Assembly (NCBI GenBank): GCA_041690395.1
Contig: JAWLHJ010000005.1
Span: 192,001 to 256,000, forward strand
Length of the DNA stretch: 64,000 nucleotides
Reading direction: 5' to 3'
DNA from: Longimicrobiales bacterium
Lineage (GTDB): Bacteria > Gemmatimonadota > Gemmatimonadetes > Longimicrobiales > Gaopeijiaceae
Both the position numbers and the translations under genes were made by a program. The notes beneath the pieces were generated by a model that did not search any database, had not been told where the DNA came from, and was given only the letters and a program-made list of their open reading frames with translations. Positions 42,687 through 49,488 of this stretch are shown piece by piece (positions within the stretch are counted from its first letter, which is position 1; every line of letters starts with the position of its first letter).

Positions 42687-43817
42687 ATGACCGACCGTAT
42701 CGAAGCGGCGCCGGCTACTGGGGCCCGTATCTCCGACTACGACTACGAGCTCCCGGACGACCGTATCGCGCGTTATCCGGCGGAGCACCGGGACGAGAGT
42801 CGGTTGCTCGTGGTCCCTCCCGAGGACGGCGTGCCGTTCCGGCACCTGCGCTTCAGGGACGTCACCGAGCTGCTCCGACCGGGCGACCTCCTGGTCGTGA
42901 ACGAGAGCCGGGTGAGGCCGGCGAGGCTACTCGGCCGGAAGCCGACCGGAGCGCCGGCGGAGATCCTGCTGTTGGGGCCGGCGGATACGGTGCGGGAGCG
43001 GGACGGTGGCGGGCCCCGCGACGGACCCGACGACGACCCGCGCGACTGGGTCGCCCTCGTCCGCCCGGGTAGCAAGCTCAAGCCCGGCCGGACCGTCGAC
43101 GTGGCCGACGACCTCACCGTCGAGATCCTCGATTCCGCGCCGGGCGGCGGGCGGGTGGTGCGCCTGCACACCACCGGCTCCGTCGAGGCGGCCATCGAGC
43201 GGCACGGCCACATGCCGCTCCCCCCGTACATCGACCGGGACGACGAGCCCCTCGACCGGGAGCGCTACCAGACCGTGTACGCGCGCGACCCCGGCTCCGT
43301 CGCCGCCCCTACCGCCGGCCTCCATTTCACCGACGAGCTCCTCGCACGAATCGAGGCGATGGGCGTGCGCCGGGCTGCCGTCTCGCTCCACGTGGGCATC
43401 GGCACGTTCCGGCCCGTCGAGGCGGACGACCCCACCGAGCACGAGATGCACCACGAGACCTACTTCGTACCGGAGTCCGTGGCTGAAGCGGTGGCCGAGA
43501 CACGCGCGGCGGGCGGCAGGGTCTGGGCGGTGGGCACCACGGTCGTGCGCACGCTCGAGGCGGCCGCCGGGCCGGACGGGCAGGTGCGCCCGGGGCCGGG
43601 CTCGACCGACCTCTTCATCCGTCCGCCCTACGACTTTCGGGTGGTCGACGCGCTCATCACCAACTTCCACCTGCCACGCTCCACGCTCCTCATGCTCGTG
43701 GCCGCGCTCGGTGGGTACGACCGGGTGATGGAGGCGTACGGCGAAGCCATCGCCGAGGGATACCGCTTCTACTCTTACGGAGACGCCATGGCGCTGGTGC
43801 GCCGAGGGAGGCTCTGA
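42687..43817 (+). CDS. queA: S-adenosylmethionine:tRNA ribosyltransferase-isomerase
   Basis: DYDYELP, PLPPYI, RYQTVYA, AAPTAGLHF, TNFHLP, FYSYGDAM. Confidence 0.97.
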   Translation: MTDRIEAAPATGARISDYDYELPDDRIARYPAEHRDESRLLVVPPEDGVPFRHLRFRDVTELLRPGDLLVVNESRVRPARLLGRKPTGAPAEILLLGPADTVRERDGGGPRDGPDDDPRDWVALVRPGSKLKPGRTVDVADDLTVEILDSAPGGGRVVRLHTTGSVEAAIERHGHMPLPPYIDRDDEPLDRERYQTVYARDPGSVAAPTAGLHFTDELLARIEAMGVRRAAVSLHVGIGTFRPVEADDPTEHEMHHETYFVPESVAEAVAETRAAGGRVWAVGTTVVRTLEAAAGPDGQVRPGPGSTDLFIRPPYDFRVVDALITNFHLPRSTLLMLVAALGGYDRVMEAYGEAIAEGYRFYSYGDAMALVRRGRL

Positions 43818-45433
43818 TGCCGTTCGAATCCATTGCCAAGTGGTCGACGCTCCCGGACCGCACGCCGCGCCACGCCCTCGTGGCCGGTGTCGACCTGGTG
43901 GTGATCCGGTACGGGAGCGAGGTGTCGGTCCTGTATGGTCGCTGCCTGCACCGCGGGGCGCTGCTCGGCGACGGGCACGTGGAGGGCGACAACCTCATCT
44001 GCGGGCTGCACCACTGGGACTACCGCATCGACTCCGGGGTGAGCGAGTACGACAACTCCGAGGCCCTGTTCAAGTTCGATGCGTATGTCGACGCCGACGC
44101 GGATTCGGTGCTGGTGGACGGCGATCAGGTGGCTGCGTGGGCCCGCGAGCATCCGCAGCCGTGGAAGCGGGACGAGTACCTCGGCGCGTACCAGGAGGCC
44201 CATGCACCCGACGTGGAGCCGGCGAACCCCTACATCCAGCGGCTGGCGCGCGAGGGGCTCTCCGTGCTCGGGCACCACGGACGGGTCGAGGCGATGGGCG
44301 TGCCGCGCTCGGAGCTCCCGGGCTGGGACGACATCCAGATCGTCACCGGGCAGTTCGCCAGGCGACCGCTGGCCGACGACGCGCCGGTGTCCACCGAGGT
44401 CGTTCTCGGACCGCGGGCGGACCGCCCGCTCCGGCTGGACATCCCCCTCCTGGTGTCGGACATGAGCTTCGGCGCGCTGTCCCGGGAGGCGAAGATCGCG
44501 CTGGCGCGAGGTGCGGACTGGGCCGGGACCGGCATCTGCTCGGGTGAAGGAGGCATGCTTCGGGAGGAGCACGCCGAGAACTCCCGGTATCTGTACGAGC
44601 TGGCCTCCGGACGCTTCGGTTGGTCGTTGGACCGGGTGCGCGACGTCCAGGCGTTCCATTTCAAGGGCGGCCAGGGAGCCAAGACCGGGACCGGCGGCCA
44701 CCTGCCGGGTCACAAGGTCACCGAGGAGATCGCCCGCGTACGGGGTCTGGAGGCCGGCCAGCCGGCCGTCAGCCCCTCACGGTTCGAGGAGCTGGCCACG
44801 GTCGACGACTTCCGCGCGCTCGGCGAGCAGGTCCGTGAAGCCTCGGGCGGTATTCCGGTCGGCTTCAAGATGTCGGCGCAGCACATCGAGGACGACCTGG
44901 ACTTCGCTTTGGAGGCCGGCGCGGACTACGTGATCCTGGATGGGCGCGGCGGGGGCACCGGCGCCGCCCCGCTCCTCTTCCGGGACCACATATCGGTACC
45001 GACGCTCGCGGCCCTGGCCCGGGCCAGGCGTCATCTGGACCTCCGGGGAGCGGACGACGTGTCCCTGGTCATCACCGGCGGCCTCCGCACCGAGACCGAC
45101 TTCGTGAAGGCGCTGGCCCTGGGCGCCGACGCCGTCGCCGTGGCGAATTCGGCCATGCAGGCCATCGGGTGCCTGGGCATGCGGGCCTGCCACACCAACA
45201 ACTGCCCCGTGGGGATCGCGACGCAGAAGGACGATCTCCGGGCGCGCTTCGTGGTCGACACGTCCGCGCAGCGCCTCACCAACTTCCTCCAGGCGTCCGT
45301 CGCTCTCATGCAGGTCCTGGCCCGGGCCTGCGGACGCGACGAGCTGGCCGGTTTCGAGCCGTCGGACCTCACGGCGTGGAAGCGGGAGATCGCCGACCTC
45401 ACGGGTATCCGGTACGCGGGGGTGGGTGGGTAG
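43817..45433 (+). CDS. Rieske-fused FMN-binding glutamate synthase-like protein
   Basis: Rieske CLH...CGLH; MSFGALS, SGEGG, GQGAKTGTGG, DGRGGGTG, CLGMRACHTNNCP. Confidence 0.88.
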   Translation: MPFESIAKWSTLPDRTPRHALVAGVDLVVIRYGSEVSVLYGRCLHRGALLGDGHVEGDNLICGLHHWDYRIDSGVSEYDNSEALFKFDAYVDADADSVLVDGDQVAAWAREHPQPWKRDEYLGAYQEAHAPDVEPANPYIQRLAREGLSVLGHHGRVEAMGVPRSELPGWDDIQIVTGQFARRPLADDAPVSTEVVLGPRADRPLRLDIPLLVSDMSFGALSREAKIALARGADWAGTGICSGEGGMLREEHAENSRYLYELASGRFGWSLDRVRDVQAFHFKGGQGAKTGTGGHLPGHKVTEEIARVRGLEAGQPAVSPSRFEELATVDDFRALGEQVREASGGIPVGFKMSAQHIEDDLDFALEAGADYVILDGRGGGTGAAPLLFRDHISVPTLAALARARRHLDLRGADDVSLVITGGLRTETDFVKALALGADAVAVANSAMQAIGCLGMRACHTNNCPVGIATQKDDLRARFVVDTSAQRLTNFLQASVALMQVLARACGRDELAGFEPSDLTAWKREIADLTGIRYAGVGG

Positions 45434-45449
45434 CGCTACCGTACCCGCC

Positions 45450-48290: not shown

Positions 48291-48345
48291 TCTCGCAGGA
48301 CCCGGGCACGATGTGATGGCCCGCATTTCCATTACTTTCTCGCCC

Positions 48346-49488
48346 ATGTTCTCCTACCAGCTCGAAGCCACCGACGGCGCCGCGCGCGCCGGCACGTTCA
48401 CCACGCCCCACGGCGCCCTCCACACGCCCGCCTTCATGCCGGTCGGAACCCTCGGCACGGTGAAGAGCGTGAGCATGTCCGAGGTCCGCGACCTCGGCGC
48501 GGAGATGGTGCTCGCCAACACGTACCACCTGTATCTGAGGCCGGGGCACGACCTGGTCCGGCAGCTGGGCGGCCTGCACGACTTCATGCGCTGGGACGGG
48601 CCCATCCTCACCGATTCCGGCGGCTTCCAGGTCTTTTCGCTGGCGGATATCCGGCGGATCGAGGACGACGGCGTCCTCTTCCAGAGCCACATCGACGGCT
48701 CCGAGCACATGTTCACGCCCGAGTCCGTCATGGAGATCCAGCGGACGCTGGGTGCCGACGTCATCATGGCGTTCGACGAGTGTCCGCCCGGCGGCTGCGA
48801 CCGGAACACCGCCGTGGAGGCGAACCGGCGCACCATCGCCTGGCTCGAGCGGTGCCGCACGCGCTTCCGTGAGCTCGCGAACGAGCGGGACGTACCGGAG
48901 CAGACGCTCTTCCCGATCGCACAGGGGAACGTCTACGACGACCTGCGGCGTGAGCACGTGCGGCAGATCTCGGATCTGGGAGATTGGCACGGGTACGCCA
49001 TCGGCGGTCTCTCCGTCGGCGAAGCCAAGCCCGACATGTGGCGCACCCTGGAGGTGCTCGACCCCGTGCTCCCCACCGACCGGCCACGCTATCTCATGGG
49101 AGTCGGGTATCCCGACGATCTCCTGGAGGCGATCTCGCGAGGGTGTGACATGTTCGACTGCGTCGCCCCGACGCGGAACGCGCGTCACGGCACTGCCTGG
49201 ACTCTCGAACAGGGGCAGGTGAACTTGAAGGCTGCCCGGTTCCGCGAGGACACGCGGCCGATCGACCCGGGGTGCGACTGCCACGCCTGCACCCACTACG
49301 ATCGTGCGTACCTCCGGCATCTGGTGAGCGCGGGCGAGCTGCTCGCCGTCCGGCTCGTCTCGATCCACAACCTCCGCTTCCTGGTTCGCCTGGGCGAGGA
49401 GGCCCGCCGCCACGTGGTGGCGGGGACGTTCGAGGCGTGGAAGAACGACTGGCTGGAACGATACCGCAAAGAACGGAGTGAAGCGTGA
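48346..49488 (+). CDS. tgt: tRNA-guanine transglycosylase
   Basis: [44 protein letters not shown]. Confidence 0.97.

Follow-up and report, generated by a model that had tools for sequence, protein, structure and literature searches.

How does a chromosome come to hold two different genes between the same pair of core genes, queA and tgt, together with a broken piece of each core gene, fused in reversed order? The question is raised by a locus in a Longimicrobiales genome (GCA_041690395.1, here G000; 4.33 Mb in seven contigs), analyzed within a window of 64,000 nucleotides, that is, positions 192001-256000 of contig JAWLHJ010000005.1 (C5). The order at the locus is queA, a gene for a Rieske/flavin mononucleotide (FMN) glutamate-synthase-like protein (GltS), a tgt piece fused to a queA piece (together the scar), a spacer, a gene for a predicted pyridoxal phosphate (PLP)-dependent decarboxylase, and tgt; ruvB, DUF3024, a metallo-beta-lactamase (MBL) hydrolase and SulP precede this run, and yajC, def and fmt follow it. 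We propose that the locus is a hybrid of alleles from two related lineages, queA-GltS-tgt (left) and queA-PLP decarboxylase-tgt (right), which a single homologous crossover combined with an illegitimate join would have produced (homology-facilitated illegitimate recombination, HFIR), a reading to which we give a probability of about one half.

The tgt-queA join and its erosion

A first-pass annotation of the window had described a tgt fragment fused directly to a queA fragment, in the reversed order that a tandem repeat would give, and blastn placed the two pieces exactly edge to edge (Table 1). At the join, which brings together non-homologous sequences, tgt codon 81 is fused out of frame to queA codon 236. 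There is no exact overlap, but the two sides share a 7-base word, whose queA copy ends right at the join and whose tgt copy stops 7 bases short of it. Over aligned columns the tgt piece is 93% identical to intact tgt, and its first 54 bases are unchanged, the longest identical run between the tgt repeats, while that of the queA repeats is 14 bases. The marks of decay described earlier were also recovered, namely a 9-nt deletion in the tgt piece and a frameshift in the queA piece, where one base is missing from a G10 run (45768-45777) as read in the assembly, a true loss or possibly a consensus error, as no related contig covers this run. The tgt piece further lacks the start codon and the first 15 codons, which seem to have been lost between two near-repeats. 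Since GltS is followed by 16 bases resembling a tgt leader and then by the tgt piece, the left part of the locus probably goes back to a compact run of queA, GltS and tgt. Two repeat arrays aside, the scar holds the sole join of reversed pieces among 301 nearby direct-repeat pairs of the genome; the seven other repeat pairs examined were tuf copies, paralogues and intergenic repeats, with no core-gene remnants.

As the genome was assembled in seven contigs, the join might have been an assembly chimera of two strains. A search listed 24 sequencing runs, of which 20 held part of the stretch and none more than 0.31 of its words; five of them (X1, X2, X5, X7, and X11), selected for holding this stretch, were compared, all as contigs. 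Three runs, drawn from two other studies, have contigs with the join: record 6 of X1 (covering 45591-45670) and record 20 of X2 (45591-45686), both of study P1, hold at least 31 letters on each side of it, while record 23 of X5 (study P2) runs through 45308-45433, 45615-45686 and 46237-46563, with 21 letters of the tgt piece and 126 of GltS to the left of the join. The flanking alleles in these two studies are 7-10% different from the window, so these contigs do not come from the source sample, and the pieces bear decay mutations; the chimera is thus refuted.

The five runs hold the scar in shortened states. X1, X2, and X5 share one deletion (45686^46237), to which X1 and X5 add a second (45433^45615), while in X11 (45468^46356) and X7 (45434^46272), from two further studies, the join itself is deleted and both cargo genes are kept. 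Together with the window this gives five states: full, minus 550 bases, minus 550 and 181 bases, and two separate deletions that remove the join. The deletion cuts share 2-6 bases, and the leftover pieces are pseudogenes that are being removed by short-homology deletions. Pieces of both cargos were present in all four other studies, with no single contig spanning the whole locus. A single contig leads from the GltS end into the spacer in each of X5, X7, and X11. An open frame (45169-46194) that runs from the tgt piece back to the queA frame after the G10 run was considered as a selected chimeric protein and rejected; it lacks the tgt start and is deleted in four other populations. As a separate observation, about 130 additional bases lie between queA and GltS in X7 (43802-43816), where the window has an overlapping stop and start.

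It had also been suggested that recombination between the repeats could excise either cargo, which our results do not support in that form. Identical runs between the queA repeats do not exceed 14 bases, and a crossover in the 54 identical bases of tgt would leave a product without the tgt start and 15 codons; all four other populations compared shortened the scar yet kept both genes, in runs that were chosen for this stretch and from which the frequency of cargo loss is not readable. Clean excision of either cargo therefore seems unlikely at present. Elsewhere, the join pattern had no matches in viral contigs, and a scan of JGI metagenomes with the tgt leader pattern gave 11 loci, none of them with queA or tgt. 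An order-wide DNA search of 401 genomes, which scored two candidates per genome and so cannot count duplicates, listed 150 matches, of which only the genome's own spans the join. The 401 genomes took in G116, which is unpublished and on which none of the claims made here depends.

Table 1. Features of the queA-tgt locus, in window coordinates
Feature	Position	Strand	Evidence and remarks
Intact queA, left flank	42687..43817	+	NF001140, 448 bits, over NCBIfam cut-off
Cargo 1, Rieske [2Fe-2S] and FMN glutamate-synthase-domain protein (GltS), 538 aa	43817..45433	+	PF00355 and PF01645; start overlaps queA stop
Likely remnant tgt leader of the left allele	45434..45449	+	Resembles tgt leaders of G002 and G004; differs from intact tgt leader
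tgt piece, codons 16-81	45450..45635	+	Matches tgt 48393-48587; 88.7% (blastn), E 1e-67
Illegitimate tgt'/'queA join	45635..45636	+	Bridged by contigs of runs X1, X2, X5
queA piece, codons 236-372	45636..46044	+	Matches queA 43393-43802; 79.5%, E 4e-98
Spacer	46045..46799	.	54-base palindrome 46236-46289; 200-base REP-like repeat 46354-46569
Cargo 2, predicted group II PLP-dependent decarboxylase, 496 aa	46800..48290	+	PF00282 (Pyridoxal_deC)
Intact tgt with its own leader, right flank	48306..49488 (ATG 48346)	+	TIGR00430, 492 bits, over cut-off

Descent of the pieces and assembly of the proposed hybrid

A simple tandem duplication should give pieces that started out identical and decayed evenly over codon positions, and neither piece follows this expectation. 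In the queA piece, 47 of 130 codons differ synonymously and 23 non-synonymously from the resident gene, and 57 of its 80 differences lie at third positions (p 9e-5 against one half, the share expected for a copy decaying beside a selected twin). For the tgt piece the count is 10 of 13 (p 0.046, with one codon being a deletion-edge artefact). This excess indicates that the pieces diverged under selection before they became pseudogenes. The queA piece is closer to the relative G006 (82.1%) than to G002 or the resident gene (79.5% each; resident queA and G002 share 84.3%), and four-taxon informative sites lean the same way (24 for G006, 6 for the resident and 9 for G002). In sliding windows it is a mosaic, with the left 100-140 bases resembling the G002 clade and the right part resembling G006; an approximately unbiased (AU) test on the right 270 bases, a region picked after viewing the windows and tested with fewer taxa, gave p 0.016 for the grouping with the resident. 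As the piece is only 80% like the resident gene, mostly through third-position changes, and leans to another species, a plain in-place duplication appears unlikely on sequence grounds. Of the genes in this run, queA is more diverged than those next to it.

The four-taxon sites of the tgt piece (5 / 2 / 2) are too few to test, and its 7% difference from resident tgt equals the tgt distance among the populations compared. No reciprocal mosaic of the kind that a crossover inside the queA repeat would predict was seen in intact queA. Intact tgt matches G002 at 92% on the DNA level from 48306 onward, and no crossover can be placed in it, as its 5' and 3' parts are alike (91.2 and 91.7% to G002, 85.5 and 86.8% to G006). 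The phylogeny of the fragments, put forward in the first-pass annotation as a way of separating capture from duplication, gave a divided answer: the lean of the queA piece to G006 speaks for capture, whereas the tgt piece nests with the resident copy, the outcome that had been named as favouring duplication. The simplest reading is one of two sister lineages, one of which would earlier have taken a G006-like queA end together with the spacer and the decarboxylase.

Under the hybrid reading, the recipient cell would have held queA-GltS-tgt and would have taken up, perhaps by transformation, a linear fragment that started in mid-queA, included the decarboxylase and extended into tgt. Homologous recombination would have taken place in or beyond tgt, and the free left end of the fragment would have been joined to codon 81 of the recipient tgt. 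Both core genes would stay whole and both cargos would be kept, while the leftovers would become pseudogenes, later trimmed by short-homology deletions. Families of comEC, dprA, and comM are found over cut-off in the genome.

The first-pass annotation had offered, next to a duplication followed by cargo replacement, a circular piece from a relative, integrated by a single crossover with core genes as homology arms and no integrase. Integrase-free capture through such arms agrees with the real join, the lack of an integrase and the signs (third positions and informative sites) that the pieces came from a relative; the circle and its single crossover fared less well. In that alternative, a fragment with mid-queA, one cargo and tgt would have circularised, making the join, and integrated by a crossover inside one of the arms, likelier the tgt arm with the decarboxylase as cargo. 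Exactly this piece order would result, with direct arm repeats around the insert and a new join, as is seen, and the 54 identical bases at the start of the tgt repeat could be the exchanged tract. In E. coli conjugation, re-circularised linear DNA integrated by single crossover, with duplications of 109-950 bp, in 56 of 60 clones (PMC3240628). Nevertheless, arms of about 260 and 410 bases are short, the queA arm is only 80% alike, and the mosaic of the queA piece has no counterpart in intact queA, while the tgt arm has too few sites to tell. The identical sequence would come from linear DNA that was joined homologously at one end and illegitimately at the other, and the anchor of such DNA may be long and lie outside the repeats, whereas that of a circle must sit within one of the two arms. 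We consider the circle less likely than the linear fragment.

A third route would begin with an in-place tandem duplication of queA-cargo-tgt, after which the cargo and arms of one unit would have been exchanged homologously for the allele of a relative. This route would also account for the grouping of the tgt piece with resident tgt and is compatible with the AU test on the whole queA piece; moreover, the standard hotspot model invokes replacement by double crossover in the core genes on either side (PMC5635113). However, a perfect repeat is unstable and short-lived, and a further event would have to fall within its lifetime; the 20%, mostly synonymous, divergence of queA together with the differing tgt leaders means that both arms would have to be overwritten, which makes this sequence of events unlikely.

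Divergence is uneven along the locus. Compared with the window, the scar, spacer, and decarboxylase are 2.9, 3.4, 5.0, and 3.6% different in X1, X5, X7, and X11, and the flanks 7.0, 10.4, 9.8, and 8.2%, values that come from tabulated contig pieces only and may mix several strains. Within single contigs the step is sharp (20/126 vs. 6/399 in X5, 22/184 vs. 2/56 in X1). This fits a spread of the block onto queA-GltS-tgt alleles that had diverged by then, or else a later exchange of the flanks, and under either reading X1 and X5 would have had a crossover at or in the tgt piece.

Several points weigh against the hybrid reading. Neither single-cargo parent (queA-GltS-tgt or queA-PLP-tgt) turned up among 40 relatives, among 46 loci or among the runs compared. 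The AU test on the whole queA piece keeps both the resident (p 0.20) and the G002 (p 0.24) groupings, the branch uniting this piece with G006 is unstarred (73/90), and the tgt piece groups with resident tgt (87/83, also unstarred). Low divergence of the block could stem from later replacement of the flanks while the block had no partner. The competence families occur in 8-10 of 14 control genomes as well, so their presence is no demonstration of competence. An exact overlap, of 3-10 bp in most HFIR joins, is missing here, and re-circularised single crossovers outnumber HFIR 56 to 4 in E. coli conjugation; three of the four E. coli HFIR joins were without microhomology (PMC3240628).

The queA-tgt gap in relatives and its cargos

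A survey of what lies between queA and tgt in relatives had been proposed at the outset, and its result, a varied content, shows the gap to be a hotspot. At least 1 kb separates the two genes in 45 of 94 family genomes (37 of the 45 with up to 20 kb), counting those with both matches on one contig among the matches listed, in which the two largest genera are under-represented. In many relatives queA and tgt are adjacent, and cargos differ between genomes. The tgt-yajC gap, taken as control, is < 300 bp in 20/20 loci. Genus g17 has an M28 peptidase in four genomes, a PadR-permease pair in two and both in three, which fits stacking but also loss from an ancestor with two cargos.

G000 alone, of the 212 genomes with a match, has two N-terminal tgt matches. 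A second C-terminal queA match was found in 20 family genomes, and these were distant paralogues (11), split genes (7) and copies on separate contigs (2). Of 46 other loci scanned, only that of G383, from another genus, has an extra queA remnant (C14, L198:11242-14337): a stretch of 101 bases from the queA 3' end recurs 2,995 bases downstream with 100 of them unchanged, following PadR and a permease, and the remnant is followed by a tetratricopeptide repeat (TPR) protein, M28 and two more permeases before tgt. No integrase family was found among the eight proteins scanned there. This assembly has frameshifts, and the 101-base repeat is known from it alone; at 99% identity, such a repeat would also fit integration of a circle.

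Integrative elements that restore their target gene and leave a fragment of it behind are well known, and the spacer holds a palindrome and a multicopy repeat, so that insertion of a cargo by an integrase or transposase with duplication of the target was weighed too. It is largely refuted and we hold it for very improbable: the six tyrosine recombinases of the genome are on other contigs, contig C5 has no PF00589 match, no integrase or transposase family occurs among the window proteins scanned, and the pieces, which stem from two different genes and are 80 and 93% alike, do not resemble att sites.

GltS is a stand-alone FMN-domain protein (GltB model score of 150 against a cut-off of 1047 bits), with orthologues (68-88%) in 9 of 24 family genomes, none of them seen at queA-tgt in the relatives' loci examined. 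The best match of the decarboxylase among 40 relatives is 45%, and it is 64-74% like proteins of five Gemmatimonadota metagenome-assembled genomes (MAGs), in other gene contexts, its nearest relatives being from Longimicrobiales and Gemmatimonadota MAGs. Its GC content at third codon positions (0.80) is the lowest of ten genes (0.84-0.95 in its nine neighbours). We lean towards the decarboxylase as the incoming cargo. The repetitive extragenic palindrome (REP)-like element of the spacer has an internal unit repeated about three times and is present in five copies in G006, one in G002 and one more in G000, and related sequence follows queA in G006. A second short repeat (46053-46149) occurs twice in G001 and once on C1 of G000. 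A riboswitch in the spacer is unsupported, and Rfam gave no matches in 42000-50000, REP-like repeat included, down to E 1. The promoter scan found no sites and the terminator scan two, against 1.1 by chance.

Other variable regions were noted in passing. The ruvB-queA gap (39331-42686) is nested across relatives, with DUF3024 in G003, DUF3024 and the MBL hydrolase in G002, SulP in addition here, and nothing in G001, G004, G005, and G006. Between ruvA and ruvB, the window has about 10 kb of accessory genes (28348-38286; beta-lactamase fold, desaturase, M20 peptidase, penicillin amidase, and BNR proteins), while G010 has only about 580 bases between ruvC and ruvB. A type III polyketide synthase gene lies at 21351-22658. 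Elsewhere in the genome, integron-like arrays (C2:763469-775780 and C1:983740-1018088, L197) consist of many imperfect 160-base repeats about 1 kb apart, with ends that we take to be attC-like, and are preceded by a tyrosine recombinase in two pieces with a best match to TIGR02249, under cut-off; both lie at contig ends and may be one array.

Significance and comparison with known systems

Double crossover, proposed for integrase-free hotspots (PMC5635113), swaps or spreads alleles and by itself leaves unexplained how a second gene gets added. The locus keeps a trace of such an additive step and five stages of its loss across wild populations, down to a clean two-gene insert, which may explain the rarity of such traces, seen at 1 of the 46 other loci scanned. 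In addition, it offers a signature that can be searched for in any genome set, a 5' piece of the downstream core gene fused to a 3' piece of the upstream one. The locus is an evolutionary record and not a new functional system, and the chemistry of its cargos is probably already known. As a tentative generalisation, integrase-free arrays might grow by stitching the allele of one relative onto that of another; the reversed scar would be erased within a few percent of divergence, and clean multi-gene inserts would be the end states. While present, the tgt piece could act as an extra homology arm that spreads the gene between diverged populations, and loss of the start codon would lock the gene in. 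In the literature covered, which holds few subscription papers, we found no report of a two-sided core-gene scar with an erosion series, or of a queA-tgt hotspot in this group.

The closest parallel is HFIR, summarised for S. pneumoniae, A. baylyi, and P. stutzeri with a usual microhomology of 3-10 bp (PMC3240628). Shared with it are one illegitimate join, a cargo of 1-2 kb, homologous neighbours as a possible anchor and the lack of an integrase, whereas here the join falls between two conserved core genes, a reversed piece of each is left, both cargos are kept and the exact overlap is missing. A product of HFIR would further involve RecA, a transformable host and loss of recipient DNA between crossover and join. 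The locus appears to work like HFIR with displacement. HFIR with displacement is the model for the effector-immunity arrays of the type VI secretion system of V. cholerae and for orphan Rhs tips (PMC5361080), where a new module is likewise inserted next to a conserved anchor and displaces the older material, remnants of gene ends stay behind, and later spread of the composite through ordinary homologous recombination has been proposed. In contrast to those arrays, the anchors here are housekeeping genes and the cargos metabolic, nothing was displaced out of function, and the remnants are seen being deleted. The re-circularised single crossovers of E. coli (PMC3240628) also have direct arm repeats of similar length around an insert, but these are identical repeats of one gene, not two diverged repeats of two genes. 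Integrase-free hotspots (PMC5635113; PMC12359135) share the variable genes between core genes, the lack of mobile-element genes and a mosaic flanking gene; double crossover leaves no scar there (PMC5635113), while here one allele was added to another and the scar was kept. Finally, transformation merodiploids of S. pneumoniae (PMC3784515) are tandems with a chimeric junction as well, yet they need prior repeats (IS861) and duplicate 100-900 kb of the same genome, whereas here unrelated genes were joined and the units differ. The mechanism is a known one, and the two-sided scar with its erosion series is the new part.

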